DNA from: Escherichia coli
GTDB lineage: Bacteria; Pseudomonadota; Gammaproteobacteria; Enterobacterales; Enterobacteriaceae
NCBI RefSeq assembly: GCF_965641715.1
Contig: NZ_OZ282453.1
Length of the DNA: 64,000 nt
Direction: 5' to 3' (one strand)
Made by a program: the position numbers and the translations under genes. The notes under the pieces were generated by a model. That model was not told the DNA's origin, did no database searches, and saw only the letters and a list, made by a program, of their open reading frames with translations. Numbering within the stretch: position 1 is the first letter of the stretch; each line of letters begins with the position of its first letter. Positions 52,418-64,000 of this stretch are shown in pieces.

Positions 52418-54082
52418 TTACTCGCCAACTTTCGCCCAGGTATCACGCAGCCCAACGGTGCGGTTAAATACCGGTTTTTCGGCAGTGGAATGGCGGCTAT
52501 CGAGGCAGAAGTAACCTTCACGCTCAAACTGGAATGCTTTACCCGCAACCGCATCTTTCAGCGACGGTTCAGCAAAGCCCTGTTTGATCACCAGCGATTC
52601 CGGGTTAATCACCGACAGGAAATCATCCGCAGCACCAGGGTTCGGCACACTGAACAGACGGTCATACAAACGGATTTCAACCGGCAGCGCATGTGCCGCG
52701 CTCACCCAGTGAATAACACCTTTGACTTTACGACCATCTGCCGGATCTTTACTTAAGGTATCGGCGTCATAAGTACAGAAGATGGTGGTGATATTACCTT
52801 CGGCATCTTTCTCGACGCGTTCTGCCTTAATCACATAAGCATTACGCAGACGCACTTCTTTACCGAGCACCAGACGTTTGTACTGCTTGTTAGCTTCTTC
52901 GCGGAAATCGGCGCGATCGATCCAAATCTCACCGCTAAACGGCACCTGACGGCTCCCCATTTCCGGTTTGTTCGGATGGTTCGGCATGGTGACCATTTCG
53001 CCTTCGCCCTGATAGTTTTCGATAACCAGTTTCACCGGATCGATAACCGCCATTGCGCGCGGCGCATTTTCGTTGAGATCTTCACGGATGCAGGATTCCA
53101 GCGACGCCATCTCAATGGTGTTGTCCTGCTTGGTCACGCCGATGCGTTTGCAGAACTCACGAATAGAAGCCGCAGTGTAACCACGACGACGCAGACCGGA
53201 AATGGTCGGCATTCGCGGGTCATCCCAGCCTTCAACGTGCTTGTCGGTCACCAGCAGGTTCAGCTTACGCTTGGACATCACAGTGTATTCCAGATTCAGG
53301 CGCGAGAATTCGTACTGGCGCGGGTGAACAGGAATGGTGATGTTGTCCAGCACCCAGTCGTACAGGCGACGGTTGTCCTGGAACTCAAGCGTACACAGAG
53401 AGTGCGTAATACCTTCCAGCGCATCGCTGATGCAATGGGTGAAGTCGTACATCGGGTAGATGCACCACTTGTTGCCAGTCTGGTGGTGTTCAGCAAATTT
53501 AATGCGGTACAGCACCGGATCGCGCATTACGATAAATGGCGACGCCATGTCGATTTTCGCACGCAGGCAGGCTTTACCTTCTTCAAAACCGCCGGTACGC
53601 ATTTTCTCGAACAGCGCCAGGTTCTCTTCAACGCTACGGTCGCGGTACGGGCTGTTTTTACCAGGCTGCGTCAGGGTGCCGCGGTATTCGCGGATCTGTT
53701 CCGGCGTCAGTTCATCAACGTACGCCAGGCCTTTATTGATCAGTTCGATCGCATAGGCGTGGAGCTGATCAAAATAATCGGAGGAGTAACGGACGTTACC
53801 AGACCAGTGAAAACCTAACCACTCAACGTCGTTTTTGATCGAATCGACATACTCGATATCTTCTTTTACCGGGTTAGTGTCGTCGAAACGCAGGTTGCAC
53901 TGGCCTTTATAGTCCTGGGCGATCCCGAAGTTCAGGCAGATAGATTTCGCATGGCCAATATGCAGATAGCCATTCGGCTCCGGCGGGAAACGGGTGTGTA
54001 CTGTGGTGTGCTTACCACTGGCCAGATCTTCATCGATGATCTGACGAATAAAGTTAGTCGGGCGGGCTTCTGCCTCACTCAT
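52418..54082 (-). CDS. glnS: glutaminyl-tRNA synthetase
   Basis: 554 aa, [24 protein letters not shown]…; class I HIGH motif (HIGH). Confidence 0.97.
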
Positions 54083-54301
54083 CGTGGATTCCTCAAAGCG
54101 TAAACAACGTATAACGGCGTATGATCTTATAAGCGGGACAGGCTGACAACTGTTAGTTAGCGAAAAAGTGGTTTTGCGTAAGATATTGGGGCGTTTTCTG
54201 CGCTACAGCCAGCAGATCCTCGCGCTGGAGACGTAAGGCCAAACGTCGCCAGCCTGACGCGTTTATTAAATTTCCGGATGAGCTGGCCGCAGAGTCGTAG
54301 A

Positions 54302-55063
54302 TTAATCCGCTATGATTAAACGCGTCGACAAGGACGCCAGCGTTTTGCGCGTCTGCCCATCAAGCTGATTATCCGTAATAATCTCTGTCAGTTCATTAAG
54401 ATGCGCGATATTAAACAGCGACCATGAACCGTATTTTGAGCTGTCAGCCAGGAGAATTTTGCGCGAAGCATGCGCGATAAGATCGCGTTTTAGTGCGGCT
54501 TTCTCTTCCGTGGGTGCTGTAATACCCTTTTCAAGATCCCAGCTGTTACAGCTTAAAAATGCCACGTCCGGCCAGGTATTTTGCAGCATTTTACGACCAT
54601 GTTCGCCAATGCAGGACTGGCTGGAGTCGTCGATACGTCCGCCGATAATCGTCACTTCAATCTGCTTGAATTCAGCCAAAAAAAGCGCGATATGCAGGTC
54701 GCTGGTGATCACGCGAAGCGGTAAATGGGTAATCTGCCGCGCAAGTTCAATCATTGTCGTACCGGCATCAAGGACGACGGAATCCCCCGCTTTGACCATT
54801 GACGCCGCTGCGCTGGCGATGGCATGTTTTTCCGCCAGGCTGCGCTGCATTTTCTCATGGGTAGTCGGTTGGGTAGGAATAAACCGGTTGAGGGTCACAC
54901 CGCCGTGTGTACGGCTGATAACACCCTGCTCATCGAGTTTTATCAGGTCTCGACGAATCGTGGCCGGCGACGCATTGGTTACCGCCACCAGCTCATCAAC
55001 GGTGACCAGATTATGGCTTTTCAGGTAATCCATGATCTGCTCTAACCGGTTATATCCCTTCAT
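54302..55063 (-). CDS. DeoR/GlpR-family transcriptional regulator
   Basis: 253 aa; N-terminal HTH …[21 protein letters not shown]… typical of DeoR; last gene of the minus-strand kinase-dehydrogenase-regulator operon. Confidence 0.85.
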
Positions 55064-55064
55064 T

Positions 55065-56051
55065 TTATTCTCGCGAAATCTGCATTGCTAACTGGATGGA
55101 AACTGCCATGCTCTCAGACTTGGCTTTTCCTGTCCAGGCAATATCAAATGCGGTGCCGTGGTCGGCAGAAGTACGAATAAATGGCAACCCGGCGGTGATA
55201 TTCACCCCATCATAAAATCCAAGCAGTTTTAAAGGGATATGCCCCTGATCGTGGTACATAGCCACCACCATATCGAATAGCCCTTCATGGCACTGCATGA
55301 ACACGGTATCTGGCGGGCACGGGCCAGTAACATCAATATCTTCGGCCTGCATTGCTTCAATCGCAGGTGCGATAATCTCGATTTCCTCAGTGCCGAATAA
55401 ACCGTGTTCCCCTGCATGTGGATTTACACCCGCCACGGCAATACGCGGACGCTCAATACCGACACGTTTCAGGAAGTGGTTCGCAACTCGAATAACCGTT
55501 TTGACCCTTTCACCGTTCAATGTATCCAGGAATTTACGCAGTGAGATGTGAGTCGAAATATGGATAACCTTGAGCTTATCGGTATAGAGCACCATCGCGT
55601 ACTCTTTGCTGCCGGTAAGATGGGCCAGCAATTCCGTATGGCCAGGATAGTTATGCCCGCCAAGATGCAGCGCTTCTTTATTCAACGGCGCAGTGGCTAT
55701 GGCTTTCACCTCGCCTGATAAGGCCAGGGCCGTTGCACGTTTGATACAGCGATACGCTAAATCGCCTGCCGCAGCCTGTACCACTCCGGGTGTCAGCGCA
55801 TCGGGGTTAGCCAGCGGCTCATCCATCACGTTAATCACGCCGGGAGCAAAGTGGGCGTCGCACACCTTTTGAATGACGCGTAACTCTGTCTGCGGCGTGA
55901 TATTCATCGCCATAATACGTCGTAACGTGCGCACACAGCCCACCACCACCACCGGGGCACCAGCAAGCCCGGCTTCGCTCAGGGATTTAATAATGATCTC
56001 CGGGCCAATACCCGCCGGATCGCCCATCGTTACCGCAATAATATTATTCAC
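55065..56051 (-). CDS. PdxA-family NAD-dependent dehydrogenase (PdxA2-like)
   Basis: 328 aa with a PdxA-type N-terminus (…[14 protein letters not shown]…); adjacent to a DUF1537 kinase. Confidence 0.8.
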
Positions 56052-57282
56052 TACGCTTCTCCTCGATAAAATTCAGAACCTGATGCAACGTGGTCTCATC
56101 GCCAAACCCACCGGCTTTCGTCATCACCGAACGGGACCAGACGCCGCCCAGAAAGTGACCGTATGGAACGCACTGCGCCACCTTCCCCGTAATACGAAAC
56201 CCGGTCGCACCTAACGCACTGGCTGTTGCCATTGCGACATCGCCACCAGAGAGATAAAGGGCATCAGGGGTGACACGAAGCAGAACTTGCCGGGTAAGTT
56301 CGCCAAGAAACCGGCAAATTTTTTCCCCAAGCGCAGCGCGACTCATCTGCCAACGCTGGCAAAGGGTGTCGATATGGTGCCTTGCTTCAGAATCGGTACA
56401 GGTGTGGACAATGCAGTGGTCCCCTTTCTGTAAGGCCTGCACAATACGCGCGTCATAGCCCCTGGCGTTGCCTGCCAGAATGTGTTCAACATCGACGTAT
56501 ATCTGTGTGATACGTGAGTGTGAATGCAGTGTGGCGATCTGCCGTTGAGCGATTTCGCTCATTGAACCAATAATGGCCAGCACGGTGGGTGGCGGCATAA
56601 TCGCCGAGCGCCGGGCAACGGCATCACAAATACCAGCGGAGCCGACCAGCAGCAGCGGTTGTTTAGCCTGCATCACAGCGGCAGCGATGCAATCCAGGTC
56701 GCTGTCCGTCTGCGCATCCATCACCCCAATCCACGGTTGCTCACGAGACAAATGGCTGAGCTCAGAAACTGTAACGGGCTGGCATGGAATGGCCGTCTGC
56801 AACCGAATGATGTCCGCAATTCGTGCGCTCATTACCGGGGTTTTTGGATCGCTGGCAAACTCGGTTTCCGTTAGCCGCACGCCGTTTACCCGACACTCAC
56901 CGTCCACCGTGGTCCTTCCCACCTGGGGAAATGCGGGGGCAACCACTGCGCCCGTTATGCCGCATGCCTGCATCAGGGCTTCAATTTCTGCGCCGATATT
57001 CCCTCGCAGCGTGGAATCTATCTTTTTAATCATGAGCGGCGGGTTATTCGCCAGAGGGAGATGACTCATCAGCGAGGTCATTTTCATCGCGGCCTGCTTA
57101 GGATCCATCGCCCGACTGTCGCTATTAATCACCCATACGCTTGCATCACCGTGATAAGGCGTTGCAAAGGCCACATCAACCGTATGTCCCACCTGCGCCA
57201 GGCTTACTCCTGCGTCGTTGGCCCCTGTGAAATCATCGGCAACGACGAGAATGCTCGGCTTAGTGATTCCCTTTTCCATCAT
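56044..57282 (-). CDS. four-carbon acid-sugar kinase family protein (DUF1537; DtnK/OtnK/DenK-like)
   Basis: N-terminal …ILVVADDFTGANDAG… motif; start ambiguous (57282, 57279 or 57321); overlaps the PdxA-family gene by 8 nt. Confidence 0.75.
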   Translation of the reverse strand: MMEKGITKPSILVVADDFTGANDAGVSLAQVGHTVDVAFATPYHGDASVWVINSDSRAMDPKQAAMKMTSLMSHLPLANNPPLMIKKIDSTLRGNIGAEIEALMQACGITGAVVAPAFPQVGRTTVDGECRVNGVRLTETEFASDPKTPVMSARIADIIRLQTAIPCQPVTVSELSHLSREQPWIGVMDAQTDSDLDCIAAAVMQAKQPLLLVGSAGICDAVARRSAIMPPPTVLAIIGSMSEIAQRQIATLHSHSRITQIYVDVEHILAGNARGYDARIVQALQKGDHCIVHTCTDSEARHHIDTLCQRWQMSRAALGEKICRFLGELTRQVLLRVTPDALYLSGGDVAMATASALGATGFRITGKVAQCVPYGHFLGGVWSRSVMTKAGGFGDETTLHQVLNFIEEKRSE

Positions 57283-57299
57283 CACTCCAGGTTGTTTTA

Positions 57300-57448
57300 T
57301 GATGACAATGATTATATTCAATCACGATTGATTAAATGTGAGCAAGTTCAAGTTATTAATCACTCGAATAAATTATAAAATTAGGCCATGTTACGTAGAC
57401 AACGGTATTTTGAATGATTGATTTCAATCACGAGAAGAGAGGTTATTT
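57300..57448. promoter_or_regulatory. divergent promoter/operator region with repeated TTCAATCACGA motifs
   Basis: Motif at 57318-57328 and 57423-57433, each next to a gattgatt half-site; lies between the divergent kinase and alcohol-dehydrogenase operons. Confidence 0.45.
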
Positions 57449-58606
57449 GTGGTAATTATCAATAGCACGATACTGAGCGGCGCAGGCGCTATCCCTTCCC
57501 TGACGTCGCTCTTACCCGGCGTCAGAAAATTGCTGCTGGTCACAGACAGCAATATTGCGCAGCTTAACGGAGTGCAGCAGATTCGCGCCTTACTGGAAAA
57601 GCACTGCCCGCAGGTGAGCGTTATCGATAATGTGCCTGCAGAGCCTACGCATCATGATGTGCGCCAGCAAATGGCGACCCTCGGCAACGCGTCGTTTGAT
57701 GTAGTAGTGGGCGTCGGCGGCGGCAGCGTGCTGGATGTCGCAAAACTGTTGTCGGTGCTTTGTCACCCCGATTCACCGGGGCTGGATGCGCTGCTTGCCG
57801 GTGAAAAACCGACGCAGCGGGTGCAATCATGGTTGATTCCTACAACCGCCGGTACCGGCTCAGAAGCCACGCCAAATGCGATTCTGGCGATCCCTGAACA
57901 AAGCACGAAGGTGGGTATTATTTCTCCGGTGCTGCTACCGGATTATGTGGCACTTTTCCCCGAGCTGACCACCAGCATGCCCGCACATATTGCAGCGTCT
58001 ACGGGCATTGATGCGCTTTGTCACTTACTGGAGTGTTTTACCGCGACCGTGGCAAATCCGGTCAGCGATAACGCGGCGCTAACCGGGTTAAGTAAGCTTT
58101 TCCGGCATATTCAACCCGCCGTGAACGATCCTCAGGATCTGCGCGCAAAACTGGAAATGCTGTGGGCGTCTTACTATGGCGGCGTAGCGATAACCCATGC
58201 GGGCACGCACCTGGTCCATGCGCTCTCCTACCCGTTAGGCGGCAAATATCACCTGCCGCACGGTGTGGCGAATGCCATCTTGCTGGCACCGTGCATGGCG
58301 GTTGTTCGCCCCTGGGCGGTCGAGAAATTTGCCCAGGTCTGGGATTGCATTCCCGATGCGGATACATCCTTGAGCGCGGAAGAGAAATCTCACGCTCTGG
58401 TGGCCTGGCTACAGGCATTAGTCAATCAACTCAAGCTGCCCAACAATCTCGCGGATCTTGGCGTACCGCCAGATGATATTACGTCTCTTAGCGCGGCGGC
58501 ACTGAACGTGAAGCGCCTGATGAACAATTCCCCCTGCCAACTGAATCAGCGGGACGTGCAGGCCATTTACCAAACGCTGTTTCCGCAACATCAATTTAAG
58601 GAGTAA
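57449..58606 (+). CDS. iron-containing (group III) alcohol dehydrogenase family oxidoreductase
   Basis: 385 aa with GTG start and upstream RBS gagaagagagg; GGGSVLD nucleotide-binding motif. Confidence 0.8.
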   Translation: MVIINSTILSGAGAIPSLTSLLPGVRKLLLVTDSNIAQLNGVQQIRALLEKHCPQVSVIDNVPAEPTHHDVRQQMATLGNASFDVVVGVGGGSVLDVAKLLSVLCHPDSPGLDALLAGEKPTQRVQSWLIPTTAGTGSEATPNAILAIPEQSTKVGIISPVLLPDYVALFPELTTSMPAHIAASTGIDALCHLLECFTATVANPVSDNAALTGLSKLFRHIQPAVNDPQDLRAKLEMLWASYYGGVAITHAGTHLVHALSYPLGGKYHLPHGVANAILLAPCMAVVRPWAVEKFAQVWDCIPDADTSLSAEEKSHALVAWLQALVNQLKLPNNLADLGVPPDDITSLSAAALNVKRLMNNSPCQLNQRDVQAIYQTLFPQHQFKE

Positions 58607-58609
58607 ATC

Positions 58610-59497
58610 ATGCCAAAAACCATTGAAGGTGTATTAACCGCCATCGTCACCCCGTTTACCGCGACCGGCGTCCTGAATCTCCCGGCGTTAAAAGTGCAGG
58701 TTAATCGCCAACTGGAAGCCGGTAACGCGATTTTTTGCGGCGGCACCAACGGCGAGTTTTTTGTGTTGAACGAACAGGAGAAGCTCAGCGTTACGCAAAC
58801 CTGCGTGGATGAAGTGGCTGGCCGCGCACCGGTCGTGGCGCACATTGGTGAGATCTCGACGCGCGAAACCATTCGTCTGGGTCAGCAGATTGAAAAACTG
58901 GGCGTTGATGCGGTATCGGTCATTACCCCGTACTTTGTACCGCTAAAACAGGAAGAGCTGATTGCCCATTACACCGCAATTGCCGACGCACTAAGCATTC
59001 CCATGTTTCTCTATAACATCCCGGCCCGCACCGGCAATACGATTCAGCCGGAAACCGCGCGCGCTCTGGCGTCGCATCCCAATATCATTGGGATTAAAGA
59101 CAGCGCCGGAAGCTACGAAAGCCTGAAGGGTTTTCTCGATGCTGTGCGCAACATTGACGGCTTTAATGTGCTCAACGGCCCGGATTCGCTGATCCATAAA
59201 GGGTTTGTCGAGGGGTGTTCAGCCTGTATTTCCGGGCTCGCCAACGTCGCGCCGCGAGAAATCAATGCCATCTGGTCTCGCTTCCATGCCGGTGATATTG
59301 AAGGATCGTATCAGGCACAGGAGAGTGTGACTGGCCTGCGTACCGATCTTTATAAAGTAGCATTCTCCCCAGCTGCGGTGAAAAAAGCGTTGCAGCTTAT
59401 GGGGCATGATGTTGGTGATAGCCGCTACGCGGTTAATTTCACGCCTGAACAGATCAGCGAGATTCAACAAATTATTCGTCATTATCACATTAATTAA
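58610..59497 (+). CDS. DapA/NanA-family class I aldolase (dihydrodipicolinate synthase-like lyase)
   Basis: 295 aa with GTNGE motif, a Tyr in ITPYF and a Schiff-base Lys candidate in IIGIKDS (Lys163); 3 nt after the dehydrogenase gene. Confidence 0.8.
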   Translation: MPKTIEGVLTAIVTPFTATGVLNLPALKVQVNRQLEAGNAIFCGGTNGEFFVLNEQEKLSVTQTCVDEVAGRAPVVAHIGEISTRETIRLGQQIEKLGVDAVSVITPYFVPLKQEELIAHYTAIADALSIPMFLYNIPARTGNTIQPETARALASHPNIIGIKDSAGSYESLKGFLDAVRNIDGFNVLNGPDSLIHKGFVEGCSACISGLANVAPREINAIWSRFHAGDIEGSYQAQESVTGLRTDLYKVAFSPAAVKKALQLMGHDVGDSRYAVNFTPEQISEIQQIIRHYHIN

Positions 59498-59556
59498 ATT
59501 AACTCTATTATCCAGCCCGCTATAACGTATAGATAAAGAGAATAAAGGATTACCCC

Positions 59557-60315
59557 ATGTTTTTGTGGTTTATGCAGCCAGATATCTGGCTCACTTTAAT
59601 TACCCTCACCTTTCTGGAAATTATTCTCGGGGTGGATAATATTATTTTTCTTTCACTGGTGGTGGCAAAACTTCCGTTATCACAACAAAATATGGCGCGT
59701 AAACTGGGTTTAAGCTGCGCGATGATTATGCGGATATTATTGCTGATATCCATTGCGTGGCTTTCACATATTACCCAGCCGCTTTTTACCGTGCTGGCGC
59801 TGGAGATTTCGTTCCGCACGTTGATTCTACTCGGGGGCGGGCTGTTCCTGATTTATAAAGCGATACAGGAGATACGCGAAGAGTTGTCGCCCGCGCAGGA
59901 AGACGCGCATGGCAGCGGGTCGCGGCAGCTGTCGCTGTGCGGTGCTATCGTACAGATAATGCTGCTGGATATTGTGTTCAGCCTGGACTCGGTGATCACC
60001 GCCGTCGGCCTTTCTCAGCATATATTTATTATGATTGCTGCCGTCATGATTGCCGTTGGCATCATGATGTTTGCGGCGAAAACCATTGGTGACTTCGTGA
60101 ACGCGACGCCATCGATAAAAATACTGGCGTTAACCTTTTTATTATTTGTCGGCGTATTGTTGGTTGCCGATAGCCTCAATATTCATATTGCCAAAGAGTA
60201 TCTCTACTTCGCGATATTTTTCTCATTAAGCGTGGAGACACTCAATATTTTCCGTGAAAGAAGACATAAAAAAGTTTCGACATCGATCGAAACGCATGAA
60301 TCGAACTCGCATTAA
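59557..60315 (+). CDS. TerC-family integral membrane protein
   Basis: 252 aa polytopic protein with a TerC-like …LEIILGVDNIIFLSLV… motif. Confidence 0.7.
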   Translation: MFLWFMQPDIWLTLITLTFLEIILGVDNIIFLSLVVAKLPLSQQNMARKLGLSCAMIMRILLLISIAWLSHITQPLFTVLALEISFRTLILLGGGLFLIYKAIQEIREELSPAQEDAHGSGSRQLSLCGAIVQIMLLDIVFSLDSVITAVGLSQHIFIMIAAVMIAVGIMMFAAKTIGDFVNATPSIKILALTFLLFVGVLLVADSLNIHIAKEYLYFAIFFSLSVETLNIFRERRHKKVSTSIETHESNSH

Positions 60316-60350
60316 TAAATCTATTACCGACTTTAAGATGGAGTCTAACT

Positions 60351-61520
60351 ATGTCTGTAGCTCTTATTCGTGACGGCGTCATCCGTCCGTCCGAAAATGA
60401 TTCGCATGTGCTTACCGCCATGCTGCCCTCGTCCTGCCCGCAAAACCACGCGGCGAATATTCTGCCTTTGCCGGATGGCGCGTTAATGTGCGTCTGGTTT
60501 GCGGGAACGCAGGAAGGTATTGCCGATATTTCCGTCTGGGGATCGCGGCTGCCCGCTGGCGGAACGCAGTGGAGCGATGCGGTCAAACTGTCCCACGATG
60601 ACACGCGTTCAGAGCAGAACCCGGTACTGTTTCTCGCACCGGATAACGTGCTGTGGCTGCTATGGACCGCACAAATATCCGGTAATCAGGACACCGCCAT
60701 CGTCCGCTACCGTAAGTCAGACGACCTCGGACAAACCTGGGGCGAGATTGCCACGCTGCTCGATAAACCCGGCACGTTCATTCGCCAGCCGATCACGGTG
60801 CTTGATAACGGCAACTGGCTGCTGCCCGTCTTTTATTGCCGTACCCAACCCGGTGAAAAATGGGTCGGCAATGATGATATCAGCGCAGTGAAAATTTCCG
60901 CTGACGGTGGTCACTCATGGCGCGATGTCGAGGTGCCGCAAAGTCTCGGCTGCGTTCATATGAATATCACAATGCTGCACGACGGTACGTTGGCTGCTCT
61001 CTTTCGCAGCCGTTGGGCAGACAACATCTATATCAGCCATTCTGCGGACCACGGCGAGAGCTGGTCGGTGCCGCAAGCAACCGAACTGCCCAACAACAAT
61101 TCGTCTATTCAGGTGACGACGCTTGCCAGCGGTGAGCTGGCGCTGGTGTACAACGCAATGAGTGCGGCAGGCGCAGTAGAACGTCGCGCGTCGCTGTATG
61201 ACGAAATCGACGATGGCGACGACAGTCGCAAAGAACCCACAGCCGTTGGACGCTCCGCTTTCTGGGGTGCCCCGCGCGCGCCGATGACGGTAGCGATTTC
61301 TGCCGATGGCGGGAAAAGCTGGCCGTGGCGGCGCAATCTCGATGAAGGCGATGGCTACTGCATGACCAACAATTCGCTGGAAAAGCTAAATCGCGAGTTC
61401 TCCTACCTCAGTATCAAACAAAGCCCGGACGGTACGCTGCATATCGCTTACACCTGGTGGCGTCAGGCCATCAAGTACGTGCGCATCTCCCCCGAGTGGG
61501 TTAAGGGGCAGGCATTATGA
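60351..61520 (+). CDS. BNR/Asp-box repeat protein, sialidase-superfamily beta-propeller, predicted cytoplasmic
   Basis: Four Asp-boxes: SDDLGQTW (60717-60740), SADGGHSW (60897-60920), SADHGESW (61041-61064), SADGGKSW (61299-61322); N-terminal IRP resembles the sialidase RIP motif; no signal peptide apparent. Confidence 0.75.
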   Translation: MSVALIRDGVIRPSENDSHVLTAMLPSSCPQNHAANILPLPDGALMCVWFAGTQEGIADISVWGSRLPAGGTQWSDAVKLSHDDTRSEQNPVLFLAPDNVLWLLWTAQISGNQDTAIVRYRKSDDLGQTWGEIATLLDKPGTFIRQPITVLDNGNWLLPVFYCRTQPGEKWVGNDDISAVKISADGGHSWRDVEVPQSLGCVHMNITMLHDGTLAALFRSRWADNIYISHSADHGESWSVPQATELPNNNSSIQVTTLASGELALVYNAMSAAGAVERRASLYDEIDDGDDSRKEPTAVGRSAFWGAPRAPMTVAISADGGKSWPWRRNLDEGDGYCMTNNSLEKLNREFSYLSIKQSPDGTLHIAYTWWRQAIKYVRISPEWVKGQAL

Positions 61521-61987
61521 TTATCGGGAATCTCAACCATTTGTCACAGGCGGGGCTTCCCGCTGGCGTGAAAAATATTCTGCTGCGCCCGGAATGTTCG
61601 TTACGGGCGTTATCCGCCAGAGAGGACGGTCGCTGGCAACTGGAAGGATGCCGGTGGTTCTGCACGCTGGGCCTTTCAGACACGCAGCCCGCCGATCTCC
61701 GGCATACGGAGTATCACCATCTGTGGGCCGATATTCAGGTGGTGATTGCCGGTTGTGAGGGCATTAATGCGGGGACGCGGCCCGTAGCGCAGGAAAGCGA
61801 TGAAGAACGTAAGCCCGATCTGTTTATCGCCCCATCCCCTGAAAACAGTGTCGCAATCACCTTACACCCCGGTGATTTCGCCGTCTTTATGCCAGAAGAA
61901 CCCCATCAGGCGCTGTGCGCGGTTGGCGCGGCCACGTCAGTACGTAAAGCGGTCTTTAAGGTACCGCGCGACATGCTGGAAGCCTAA
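61517..61987 (+). CDS. YhcH/YjgK/YiaL-family (DUF386) protein, putative ulosonic-acid anomerase
   Basis: 156 aa resembling E. coli YhcH (…GDFAVFMPEEPH… versus YhcH …GMFAVFMPGEPH…); overlaps the upstream gene by 4 nt. Confidence 0.75.
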   Translation: MIIGNLNHLSQAGLPAGVKNILLRPECSLRALSAREDGRWQLEGCRWFCTLGLSDTQPADLRHTEYHHLWADIQVVIAGCEGINAGTRPVAQESDEERKPDLFIAPSPENSVAITLHPGDFAVFMPEEPHQALCAVGAATSVRKAVFKVPRDMLEA

Positions 61988-62000
61988 AAGGAGAGAAAAA

Positions 62001-63281
62001 ATGACAATGGAAATGATCCTGGCATTAGGAATACTGGTCCTGATGATCGTGCTGATCATGTCGGACAAAATGCCCTTTGGCGCACCGCCACTGCTTGCGT
62101 GTTTATTGCTGGTTGTCTCGGGGCTGTCGACGGTTCAACAGGCTTTTGCCGGATTCGTCAATCCAAGCGTGGTGATGATTGCAGGGTTTATGGTGGTGAT
62201 GGCTGCGCTACAAAAAACCCGGCTTATCAGCAACGTTAAATCTGCGATGATAAGCCTGGTCAATAAAGGCAGTTACCGCAGTTATGGGCTGTTGTTAGTC
62301 ATCGTTATGCTGGGCGCCAGTCTTGCCGGCACCGGCGCGACGGGTTATTACGTGCTGATTCTGTCTCTGGTATCCACCATTCCGTACAGTAAAAAGCTAC
62401 CAACATCGAAATTGATGATGCCACTGGGATTTGCCACCAACCATCCGCTTCTTCCTATCAATCTCGCGCTTCTCTTTGGCGTCACGGCGACCGTACTCGA
62501 AACAGCCGGTTTTCATCAGGAGATTTCGATGGGGCGCTTTGCGCTGGTGAATCTCGTCATGTCAGCGGCTTTTCTGGCGTGGAGTCTGATTGCCTACCGT
62601 TTTCTTCCGGATCATCCCATTGCGGATGCTTCCGAGGATGCGCTGGCCGCACGCGAAGAAACGTTTAACGCCCTTCCTGCCTGGAAAGAGTATTGCACCA
62701 TCGCCGCATTCGCCGTCAGCGTTATCGGCATGATGCTGATGAATATGCTGGGTAATATCGCCTTCGTTATTCCAGGCCTTGCGGGTGCGTTTGTTCTGAT
62801 GATCGATGTACTGGACTTTAAAGAAGTTCGCGATCATATGGGGGCACCGGTCATTTTAATGATGGCGGGGGTGATCGGTGTGGCTGATGCGCTGGCTGGC
62901 ACCGGCTTTACGGCAATGGTAGGCGATGCCGTTGCAGGTGTGCTCGGGTCTGGCGTCTCACCGTTTGTATTTATTGTCGCCTTTGCTTTACTTACCAGTA
63001 CCTGCGCCACCTTCACGGGTTCGAATATGGGGTCAGTCTATATTTTTGCCCCCATCGCCATTGCCGCCTGTACTAGCCTTGGGCTTAACCCGACCGCTGC
63101 CGCGATTGCGGTGGTGATTTCTGGCTGGAATGGCGGCTATATGCCTATTGACGGAATGCCAGCCATGATCCTCGGAATGGGGAAATACAAACTTCCCGAA
63201 TTCTGGGTGTTCTCTGTACCAATGTATCTCATCCGCATTCTGGCGCTTTGTGCAGGCGCTGTTTTTATCTTCCCAATGTAA
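62001..63281 (+). CDS. ion-transporter superfamily permease (DASS/CitMHS/ArsB-like), putative organic anion transporter
   Basis: 426 aa polytopic membrane protein; start taken at the ATG 7 nt after the aaggaga RBS (MTMEMILALGIL…), not the ORF-track start at 61800 which overlaps the upstream gene. Confidence 0.7.
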   Translation: MTMEMILALGILVLMIVLIMSDKMPFGAPPLLACLLLVVSGLSTVQQAFAGFVNPSVVMIAGFMVVMAALQKTRLISNVKSAMISLVNKGSYRSYGLLLVIVMLGASLAGTGATGYYVLILSLVSTIPYSKKLPTSKLMMPLGFATNHPLLPINLALLFGVTATVLETAGFHQEISMGRFALVNLVMSAAFLAWSLIAYRFLPDHPIADASEDALAAREETFNALPAWKEYCTIAAFAVSVIGMMLMNMLGNIAFVIPGLAGAFVLMIDVLDFKEVRDHMGAPVILMMAGVIGVADALAGTGFTAMVGDAVAGVLGSGVSPFVFIVAFALLTSTCATFTGSNMGSVYIFAPIAIAACTSLGLNPTAAAIAVVISGWNGGYMPIDGMPAMILGMGKYKLPEFWVFSVPMYLIRILALCAGAVFIFPM

Positions 63282-63290
63282 TCTCAGACA

Positions 63291-63327
63291 AAAAAAGCGG
63301 CAGAGAAGATCCCTGCCGCTTTTTATT
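63291..63327. terminator. bidirectional intrinsic terminator between the convergent permease gene and nagE
   Basis: aaaaaaa-gcggcag-agaagatcc-ctgccgc-ttttt. Confidence 0.75.
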
Positions 63328-63366
63328 GTTGAATGCGACGCTGCCGTGTCGCATCAGGCATGAAGC
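63328..63366. repeat. REP-like palindrome at the nagE 3' flank
   Basis: gaatgcgacgctgccgtgtcgcatcaggc resembles a REP core. Confidence 0.5.
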
Positions 63367-63369
63367 AGA

Positions 63370-64000
63370 TTACTTTTTGATTTCATACAGCGGTGTTTGA
63401 CCCGCCACAACATGGCCCTGAGCTTTAATGATCAAGCCACTGAAATCGTCGATATTACTGCAAACCACTGGGCTAATCATCGAGCGGGCGTTAGCGTTCA
63501 GGTAATCCAGATCCATTTCCAGAATCGGTTGTCCTGCGCTTACCTGCGCGCCCTCTTCCACCAGACGTTTAAAGCCTTTACCTTCCAGCGCTACGGTATC
63601 GATACCCATATGGACGACGATCTCCGCGCCTTTTTCGGTTTCCAGGCAGAACGCGTGGTTGGTGTTGAAGATTTTCACGATTGTCCCTGCGGCTGGTGAT
63701 ACGACGATTTTATCTGTCGGTTTCACCGCCACACCGTCACCCACTGCTTTGCTGGCGAATGCTTCGTCAGGAACCTGATCCAGTGCCACGACATCACCGG
63801 TAATCGGCGATACCAGCTCCGCGATAGATACCGCGTTTGGTACAGCCTGCGGTTTTGCTACAGGAGCGGCAGTTGCCGGAGTTGCTTCAGCAGAGGCAGC
63901 TGCTACCGGGCCACGGGCAACGACTTTCTTCATCGCATCGCCGATGGATTCTGCTTTCGCGCCAACAATCACCTGAATAGTCTGTTTGTTCAGTTTTACT
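63370..64000 (-). CDS. nagE: PTS N-acetylglucosamine-specific EIICBA component, C-terminal part (5' end lies beyond the window)
   Basis: Translation ends …GQTPLYEIKK; EIIA-Glc-type domain with the GIDTVALEGKGF region; the frame stays open towards the window edge. Confidence 0.85.
   Translation of the reverse strand, partial: VKLNKQTIQVIVGAKAESIGDAMKKVVARGPVAAASAEATPATAAPVAKPQAVPNAVSIAELVSPITGDVVALDQVPDEAFASKAVGDGVAVKPTDKIVVSPAAGTIVKIFNTNHAFCLETEKGAEIVVHMGIDTVALEGKGFKRLVEEGAQVSAGQPILEMDLDYLNANARSMISPVVCSNIDDFSGLIIKAQGHVVAGQTPLYEIKK

Follow-up and report, generated by a model that had tools for sequence, protein, structure and literature searches.

What would a sialidase do inside a bacterial cell? 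The question is raised by a gene in the stretch of Escherichia coli DNA analyzed here (64,000 nucleotides of contig NZ_OZ282453.1, hereafter the window), whose product looks like a sialidase and appears to stay in the cytoplasm. We call it BNR, after the Pfam family that it matches. Our analysis indicates that BNR is very probably an enzyme with a sialidase fold that serves, in the cytoplasm, a conserved pathway for an acid sugar ending in D-threonate. The best overall explanation, to which we give a little less than even weight, is that it works there on behalf of an imported sugar acid of the 3-deoxy-2-ulosonic type and not on sialic acid. As the substrate of the pathway we tentatively propose 3-deoxy-heptulosaric acid of the D-lyxo configuration (Dha), the C7 3-deoxy-ulosaric acid of the pectin rhamnogalacturonan II (RG-II). 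More tentatively still, the clade of the sialidase superfamily to which BNR belongs (COG4692), in which a catalytic Arg is replaced by His, may supply the entry enzyme of this pathway.

60351..61520, + strand: BNR, a BNR_2/COG4692 sialidase-fold protein of 389 aa with an ATG start; cytoplasmic, catalytic residues predicted

The open reading frames (ORFs) of BNR and of the gene that follows it (61517..61987, + strand, 156 aa) are those of the original prediction, and the four Asp-boxes named there are exact matches to S-x-D-x-G-x-x-W, at residues 123-130, 183-190, 231-238, and 317-324. At least one Asp-box arose in only 190 of 20,000 composition-preserving shuffles of the protein. Pfam BNR_2 (PF13088) matches BNR from end to end (E=1.4e-62, model positions 1-277 of 277), and the orthologue of strain BEN2908, an avian pathogenic E. 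coli (APEC), matches COG4692, “predicted neuraminidase,” with E=3e-138 (PMC12928451). A scan against NCBIfam assigned no family to the protein, and a phmmer search of the PDB gave matches at the level of the Asp-boxes only, so that a family profile was needed to go beyond them. In complete E. coli genomes the orthologues are labeled “sialidase family protein” by RefSeq. To compare the family, an exhaustive search with HMMER was run, which gave 3,772 representatives at E<=0.001, and 45 diverse homologues among them (about 30-85% identity) were aligned. With this alignment as input, the AlphaFold model of BNR is a six-bladed propeller (mean pLDDT 95.2, pTM 0.94), and its closest structural matches are GH33 sialidases, at 13-19% sequence identity. 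The sialidase fold thus holds by both profile and model, and BNR has two of the hallmarks of GH33, the six-bladed beta-propeller catalytic domain and the Asp-box repeats.

The prediction of a cytoplasmic protein is likewise borne out. No signal peptide was found in BNR, since within residues 1-40 the 15-aa Kyte-Doolittle mean peaks at 0.35 and no RR motif is present. Residues 10-40 already form part of the propeller (pLDDT 96-98), and an in-frame stop lies 18 codons upstream of the ATG, so the ORF cannot be extended to a longer N-terminus. The gene is functional and under strong purifying selection, with a ratio of nonsynonymous to synonymous substitution rates (dN/dS) of 0.05 against the orthologue of strain E2348/69; the remaining genes of the operon range from 0.01 to 0.19.

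The active site departs from that of a canonical sialidase. Catalytic positions were placed by alignments of hidden Markov models and profiles to solved sialidases (the IT-sialidases and Amuc_1547), and their clustering in three dimensions is inferred from homology. The predicted catalytic set of BNR is H33, E55, H203, R219, R309, and Y352, together with the family-invariant R221, R371, N248, and N250. An N-terminal I11-R12-P13 had been read as resembling the RIP arginine motif of sialidases; the letters are indeed there, but R12 is Arg in only 21 of the 45 homologues. Moreover, the RIP register of the IT-sialidases (R-I-P-A-L-L) aligns onto H33-A-A-N-I-L, where the family profile reads H-A-S-n-l-l. 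We therefore rejected IRP as the RIP motif. His33 is conserved in 43/45 homologues, so that a near-invariant His takes the position of the first Arg of the catalytic triad, the Arg of (F/Y)RIP in GH33, while the second and third are present as R219 (44/45) and R309 (43/45) according to the Amuc_1547 alignment. The nucleophile position, Q in Amuc_1547 itself but Y in the 9EOB variant, falls on Tyr352 (41/45), so that the nucleophilic Tyr of GH33 is present. The Glu that activates this Tyr in GH33 is absent: its counterpart in Amuc_1547, the Glu of “aVEat,” corresponds to position 203, which lies 16 residues ahead of R219 and is His in 25, Gln in 20, and Glu in none of the 45. At the site of the acid/base Asp (GGTHD in the IT-sialidases) all 45 homologues carry Glu55, acidic but a different residue. 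Further near-invariant residues in the alignment are R221, R371, N248, N250, and Q89-N90. Of the catalytic residues to be checked according to the original prediction, the Tyr and two of the three Arg are thus present, and the RIP Arg and the Glu partner are replaced. With two canonical residues changed and the core machinery kept, BNR is, as judged from the alignment, a member of a distinct, divergent clade of the sialidase superfamily (BNR_2, COG4692) and not a canonical GH33 sialidase. This variation (His for the RIP Arg, His or Gln for the Glu partner) also deserves attention in studies of how sialidase-fold enzymes catalyze their reactions.

The neighbors of BNR say more about its substrate. 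It is the fourth gene of a six-gene operon on the + strand, divergent from an operon dtnK-pdxA2-deoR on the - strand:

57449..58606, + strand: iron-containing alcohol dehydrogenase (Fe-ADH), first gene of the operon, proposed aldehyde reductase
58610..59497, + strand: class I pyruvate aldolase of the dihydrodipicolinate synthase (DHDPS)/NanA family; Schiff-base Lys (GIKDSAG) and DHDPS Arg (LYNIPARTG) kept
59557..60315, + strand: TerC-family membrane protein, in the slot that holds a sodium:solute symporter in most other species
61517..61987, + strand: YhcH/YjgK/YiaL (DUF386) protein, 156 aa, probably an anomerase of sugar acids or a helper in ring opening; start codon overlapping the stop of BNR
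62001..63281, + strand: SLC13/DASS-family anion permease, probable importer of a di- or tricarboxylic substrate (RefSeq: SLC13 family permease)
56044..57279, - strand: DtnK, DUF1537 four-carbon acid-sugar kinase of the D-threonate kinase class (NF047819)
55065..56051, - strand: PdxA2, D-threonate 4-phosphate dehydrogenase, decarboxylating, yielding dihydroxyacetone phosphate (DHAP) and CO2 (NF002891)
54302..55063, - strand: DeoR/GlpR-family repressor, probable regulator of both divergent operons

Membership of a catabolic operon, as originally proposed, is clear from this arrangement, and an ulosonic-acid-type substrate processed inside the cell, also proposed, remains the best fit to the gene context. 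The substrate is narrowed far more by the DHDPS-like aldolase, Fe-ADH, the D-threonate kinase and dehydrogenase, and the dicarboxylate-type permease, which had gone unnoticed, than by the YhcH-family protein. The latter belongs to the family TIGR00022 (97 bits against a cut-off of 45.5), with PDB 9jrr (DUF386, E=5e-23) and YhcH of Haemophilus influenzae (HI0227, E=7e-14) as its nearest solved relatives, but it falls short of the NanQ anomerase equivalog NF040884 (94.3 bits against 160). Its translational coupling to BNR was correctly read from the ATGA at 61517-61520 (GCA TTA TGA / ATG ATT ATC). This coupling is, however, not universal: YhcH follows BNR in 58 of 89 loci, Pectobacterium has a gap of 63 nt between the two genes, and some loci lack YhcH altogether.

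DtnK and PdxA2 both exceed the cut-offs of their D-threonate equivalogs (531.8 bits against 450 for NF047819 and 680.9 against 583 for NF002891), and they are 40% and 75% (P58718) identical, respectively, to the Salmonella enzymes (PMC12928451). The absence of a transporter gene from their operon points to D-threonate being formed within the cell. The aldolase is, by its profile scores, a member of the DHDPS family and not DapA itself: it reaches 189.6 bits with the DapA equivalog TIGR00674 (cut-off 206.15) and 114-148 bits with the NanA models (cut-offs 281-382), and its nearest matches are true DHDPS enzymes (E 2e-42), with YagE and NanA further off. The carboxylate-binding Arg of DHDPS, in YN(V/I)PxRT, is R or K in 64 of 68 aldolase homologues linked to such clusters. 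The aldehyde substrate of DHDPS, aspartate semialdehyde, is itself a C4 aldehyde-acid. As for the permease, the mechanically called ORF starts at 61800 and overlaps the YhcH gene by 188 nt; position 62001 is likely to be the true start because an AGGAG lies 8 nt upstream of that ATG, the gap to YhcH is then 13 nt, and the start is of the RefSeq type. No riboswitch or other RNA matched Rfam at E<=0.1 over positions 54000-64000, and thus no Mn riboswitch upstream of TerC; scans for promoters and terminators gave nothing better than shuffled sequence.

The two operons are very probably one regulon, since a conserved palindrome is common to both. The sequence TGATTn6AATCA occurs twice, 106 bp apart, in the region between dtnK and the Fe-ADH gene and nowhere else in the window:

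57309..57324, divergent promoter region: palindrome TGATTATATTCAATCA, putative DeoR-type operator, copy 1
57415..57430, divergent promoter region: palindrome TGATTGATTTCAATCA, putative operator, copy 2

The palindrome is conserved, with one or more copies in 51 of the 52 orthologous divergent regions compared, which range from Escherichia to Vibrio. As a conserved sequence signal, this palindrome is probably the DeoR operator that joins the two operons.

These genes can be assembled into a pathway from Dha to pyruvate and D-threonate. A small diacid would be imported by the SLC13 permease. BNR would then act at C2 of the ulosaric acid, with Tyr352 as nucleophile, Glu55 as acid/base, and Arg219 and Arg309 as a carboxylate clamp, and would either hydrolyze a small ketoside of Dha or open or hydrate an anhydro or dehydro form, giving free Dha. 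YhcH would speed the anomerization and ring opening of Dha, and the aldolase would cleave the open-chain form into pyruvate and 2,3-dihydroxy-4-oxobutanoate (D-threuronate). Fe-ADH would reduce this aldehyde to D-threonate, DtnK would phosphorylate O4, and PdxA2 would complete the route by oxidative decarboxylation to DHAP and CO2, so that in sum a C7 diacid would give pyruvate, DHAP, and CO2. Such a scheme for a C7 2-keto-3-deoxy diacid accommodates a pyruvate aldolase of either class (I or II), an aldehyde reductase, and the D-threonate kinase and dehydrogenase, and the dicarboxylate-type SLC13 permease fits it too. The stereochemistry agrees as well. In Fischer projections that we derived ourselves, retro-aldol cleavage of D-lyxo Dha followed by reduction of the aldehyde gives exactly D-threonate: C5 and C6 of Dha end up as C3 (right) and C2 (left) in D-threonate, in agreement with the annotated specificity of the divergent operon. 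The exact reaction of BNR is the weakest link; the residues conserved in the protein favor a reaction at C2 of an ulosonic or ulosaric acid.

Several known systems resemble parts of this scheme. In the glucarate/galactarate route, the aldolase GarL cleaves a 2-keto-3-deoxy-aldarate into pyruvate and an aldehyde-acid, which is then reduced by GarR and phosphorylated by GarK. The logic is that of the proposed pathway, whose substrate would be one carbon longer (C7 instead of C6) and whose entry step would fall to a sialidase-fold protein instead of a dehydratase; at some BNR loci, aldolases of the HpcH/GarL type even stand in for the DHDPS-type one. To our knowledge, an upstream source of D-threonate is not part of the described DtnK/PdxA2 pathway, which reportedly goes back to Zhang et al. 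2016. The nan system of E. coli (NanQ/YhcH and NanA) likewise pairs a YhcH-family protein with a class I pyruvate aldolase that needs an open-chain keto acid, but both proteins of the BNR operon stay far below the NanQ (94 against 160) and NanA (114-148 against 281-382) cut-offs; ORF2 of BEN2908 is 33% identical to NanQ (PMC12928451). Among sialidases and KDNases of GH33 (Micromonospora viridifaciens 1EUR/1EUS, human cytosolic Neu2, and the Aspergillus fumigatus KDNase), identity to BNR is only 15-19%, and besides His33, His/Gln203, and Glu in place of the acid/base Asp, the BNR family differs by its extra invariant Arg residues (R221, R371), by an LPNNNSS motif, and by a gene context free of sialic-acid genes. 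The best profile match among solved structures is the Amuc_1547 type of Akkermansia muciniphila (PDB 8AXI/8HLS/9EOB; E 1e-16 to 2e-15, residues 129-360), like BNR a sialidase-fold enzyme with a non-canonical catalytic set. Dha itself is a ketosidically linked sugar of RG-II, and the only known enzyme that releases it, BT1020 of Bacteroides thetaiotaomicron, is sialidase-like too (PMC6811678). However, the Dha-hydrolase domain of BT1020 (GH143, PDB 5MQS) is five-bladed and fused to a GH142 arabinofuranosidase, belongs to an RG-II polysaccharide utilization locus, and acts on the polysaccharide outside the cytoplasm, whereas BNR is a six-bladed, single-domain, cytoplasmic protein much closer to GH33 and lacks the five-bladed architecture of GH143.

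Within E. coli, the island occupies the nagE-glnS interval of 1,047 of 5,426 complete genomes (~19%) at ~95% nucleotide identity, extraintestinal pathogenic, enteropathogenic, and adherent-invasive strains among them. In the window it is a nine-gene block (region 52418-63972) inserted between glnS and nagE, two genes that lie side by side in E. coli K-12. For the glnS next to the block, identity reaches 99.2% with E. coli from river water and from a baboon, and the window probably stems from a divergent Escherichia lineage. We also scanned a species-level genome collection with a profile of 15 closer BNR sequences, in which the nearest genome was Escherichia sp. MOD1-EC7003 (97% protein identity). 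Orthologues at 70-85% identity occur in Klebsiella (oxytoca group), Enterobacter, Leclercia, Kosakonia, Pantoea, Erwinia, Pectobacterium, Dickeya, and Rahnella; relatives at 61-68% in Budvicia, Tolumonas, Vibrio, Actinobacillus, Bacillus, Clostridium, and Propionivibrio; and relatives at about 46-53% in the fungi Aspergillus (sections Nigri and Flavi), Gaeumannomyces, Cercospora, and Colletotrichum. The hosts are mainly pectinolytic or plant associated (Pectobacterium, Dickeya, Erwinia, Pantoea, Kosakonia, Bacillus, Aspergillus section Nigri, Gaeumannomyces), and at the Bacillus altitudinis locus a GH28 galacturonidase-like gene adjoins the cluster.

Neighbors were counted by tblastn with the operon proteins against 89 BNR-carrying loci, several of which are too short to show them. 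DapA-like aldolases were found in 67, PdxA2 in 65, Fe-ADH in 64, DtnK in 62, DeoR in 59, YhcH in 58, and a short-chain dehydrogenase/reductase (SDR) in 51. The usual enterobacterial operon reads Fe-ADH, DapA-like aldolase, sodium:solute symporter (SSS), BNR, YhcH, SDR; in the E. coli/K. oxytoca form, TerC replaces the symporter and SLC13 the terminal SDR. In most species the symporter is translationally coupled to BNR, and TerC occupies its slot in the window (59557-60315) and at loci L011, L012, L020, and L079; at a further locus (L095) a TerC gene lies 7 kb from an unrelated cluster of actinobacterial type. Versions of one module, in which BNR is joined by a pyruvate aldolase, an aldehyde reductase, a DUF1537 kinase, PdxA, and an acid transporter, are found in Proteobacteria, Firmicutes, Actinobacteria, and plant-pathogenic ascomycete fungi, and distant homologues (41-49% identity) keep the module with non-orthologous replacements. 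Thus, an actinobacterial locus has an SBP5 ATP-binding cassette (ABC) transporter, BNR, DeoR, PdxA, a DUF1537 kinase, an aldo-keto reductase (AKR), and an HpcH/HpaI aldolase; a metagenomic locus has a kinase, Fe-ADH, PdxA, DHDPS, SDR, BNR, and a tripartite ATP-independent periplasmic (TRAP) transporter; two others follow the same pattern, one with an AKR and an ABC transporter and one with an SBP5 ABC transporter, BNR-FeADH-DHDPS, a kinase, and PdxA. On fungal contigs BNR stands alongside DHDPS, PdxA, AKR, a major facilitator superfamily (MFS) transporter, and a fungal transcription factor. The transporter types seen (SLC13, SSS, TRAP, SBP5-ABC, MFS) suit small organic acids. In three proteins of the AlphaFold database (AFDB), A0A257H979, A0A1I1JV56, and A0A9P1JZ79 (648, 711, and 724 aa), one half resembles BNR at 45-58% identity; they are described as an HpcH/HpaI aldolase (648 aa, BNR part 57%), a PdxA 4-hydroxythreonine-4-phosphate dehydrogenase (711 aa, 45%), and a “modular” glycosyl hydrolase (724 aa). 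Their lengths and descriptions imply apparent fusions of BNR with its pathway partners, of the Rosetta-stone kind; in a Pfam scan of three long homologues (P0185, P0198, P0245) only BNR_2 was found, so that the fusions were not confirmed and the case for them stands on the AFDB descriptions and lengths.

Several points weigh against this reading. The substrate is deduced from pathway arithmetic and stereochemistry only. The transporters suit acids of monosaccharide size and not oligosaccharides, so a ketosidase is not obviously needed for free Dha. With the kinase only 40% identical to the characterized Salmonella DtnK, its stereospecificity could differ, and with the substitutions at H33 and H/Q203 a retaining, sialidase-like mechanism is not guaranteed. 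The SDR common to most species is given no step in the proposed pathway. Bare SSS-BNR-SDR modules, with no aldolase, kinase, or PdxA within 10 kb, occur in Pantoea and in Bacillus glycinifermentans. Beyond these, a 42%-identical BNR paralogue (P0144 cluster, 2,185 members) lies at the metagenomic loci L090/L091 between a mannosidase-like GH2 gene and an aldose 1-epimerase, and none of the threonate-module genes was found there; the wider COG4692 family therefore probably has more than one substrate. Finally, codon 353 (61407-61409), beside the putative nucleophile, encodes Leu in the protein of the window and Pro in 44 of the 45 homologues.

Two of these points can be set out further. The window's copy of BNR reads SYLS where E2348/69, Escherichia sp. 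MOD1-EC7003, and a 98%-identical E. coli cluster read SYPS, and this private P353L change next to the predicted nucleophile Tyr352 might mark an impaired allele here. At the Pantoea loci (L041-L048, e.g., L041 6256-11853) a TtdR-like LysR regulator and a divergent tartrate dehydrogenase lie beside symporter-BNR-SDR. The C4 aldehyde-acid, if oxidized, would be a tartrate isomer, and the Pantoea variant may thus be an alternative downstream route, or a coincidence.

The name exo-alpha-sialidase, given by RefSeq and nr, would make BNR a genuine sialidase that releases N-acetylneuraminic acid (Neu5Ac) from sialosides, with YhcH as NanQ and the DapA-like protein as Neu5Ac lyase. We consider this extremely improbable, and here too the original prediction, which doubted canonical activity, agrees with the residues and the neighbors. 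His stands in for the first triad Arg, and either His or Gln for the Glu that partners the Tyr; the YhcH protein (94 bits against 160) and the aldolase (114-148 against 281-382) miss the NanQ and NanA cut-offs, an export signal is absent, and the hosts are mostly plant and soil organisms and fungi. In addition, the operon lacks N-acetylmannosamine kinase, epimerase, and an N-acetylglucosamine 6-phosphate enzyme and has instead an aldehyde reductase and the D-threonate kinase and dehydrogenase; as these enzymes point to Dha breakdown, BNR is almost certainly not a true sialidase. The same substitutions at two canonical GH33 catalytic positions, together with P353L in the window's copy, might alternatively indicate a propeller that has lost catalysis and serves in binding or as a scaffold. 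Such a role appears very unlikely in view of residues that vary little or not at all among homologues of about 30-85% identity (E55, R219, R221, R309, Y352, R371, N248/N250), a dN/dS of 0.05, a conserved operon slot between transporter and catabolic enzymes, and the apparent fusions to enzymes.

Two further alternatives keep a catalytic BNR in an acid-sugar pathway. Within the same pathway, it could be a lactonase or a helper of the mutarotase type that turns a lactone, an anhydro form, or the wrong anomer into the form ready for the aldolase. There are precedents in the beta-propeller lactonases and in NanM, the Kelch-propeller mutarotase of Neu5Ac, and we regard this as unlikely. The substrate could also be another one, either a glycoside of 3-deoxy-D-manno-octulosonic acid (Kdo) or of a further ulosonic acid, or an amino analogue that yields 4-hydroxythreonine as the C4 fragment for salvage of pyridoxal 5'-phosphate (PLP), to which we likewise assign a small probability. 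The aldolase is nearest to DHDPS, which takes an amino aldehyde-acid; we know, however, of no natural C7 amino-ulosaric acid, and both DtnK and PdxA2 lie above the D-threonate cut-offs. A link between PdxA2/DUF1537 pairs and the recycling of 4-hydroxythreonine has been drawn (Thiaville et al. 2016, as cited in PMC12928451 and PMC9997740). Kdo is abundant, is secreted by RG-II degraders, and has no confirmed pathway in gut bacteria (bioRxiv 10.64898/2026.03.13.711244). Its cleavage, however, would give D-arabinose, which cannot feed a four-carbon acid-sugar kinase, and the dicarboxylate-type SLC13 permease fits a diacid. Kdo was rejected as the substrate because this aldol product is unconnected to the kinase.

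Our searches turned up a single paper on the island, a 2026 study of APEC strain BEN2908 (region GR6, nagE..glnS), where its ORFs appear under “uncharacterized features,” a similar cluster in Sinorhizobium meliloti is noted, and the PdxA2/DUF1537 pair is linked to PLP synthesis (PMC12928451); a role of PdxA2 in organic-acid catabolism is also on record (PMC9997740). Literature searches found no work linking Dha to an aldolase or to threonate, and many subscription papers lie outside their reach, so that a prior description is possible. Searches on D-threonate with sialidase, on heptulosaric acid catabolism or aldolase, on COG4692, and on Dickeya with sialidase found no assignment of a function. 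BNR is thus a divergent member of a known superfamily in an apparently undescribed, phylogenetically broad catabolic module.

In Enterobacterales, Bacillus, rhizobia, actinomycetes, and Aspergillus, the labels “exo-alpha-sialidase” and “predicted neuraminidase” are probably wrong for thousands of proteins, whose conserved partners define an acid-sugar pathway that can be tested. If the pathway is as proposed, these predicted neuraminidases of plant-associated bacteria and fungi would gain a function, and D-threonate would have a natural source, which would explain why a D-threonate kinase/dehydrogenase pair exists. RG-II sugars are secreted by Bacteroides and lack confirmed consumer pathways (bioRxiv 10.64898/2026.03.13.711244). 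If Dha is indeed the substrate, a gap in the mineralization of RG-II, the most complex plant polysaccharide, would be closed. E. coli of phylogroup B2 could then scavenge a pectin sugar freed by Bacteroides in the gut, and the island, present in about one-fifth of complete genomes, would represent a strain-variable nutrient niche within the species.

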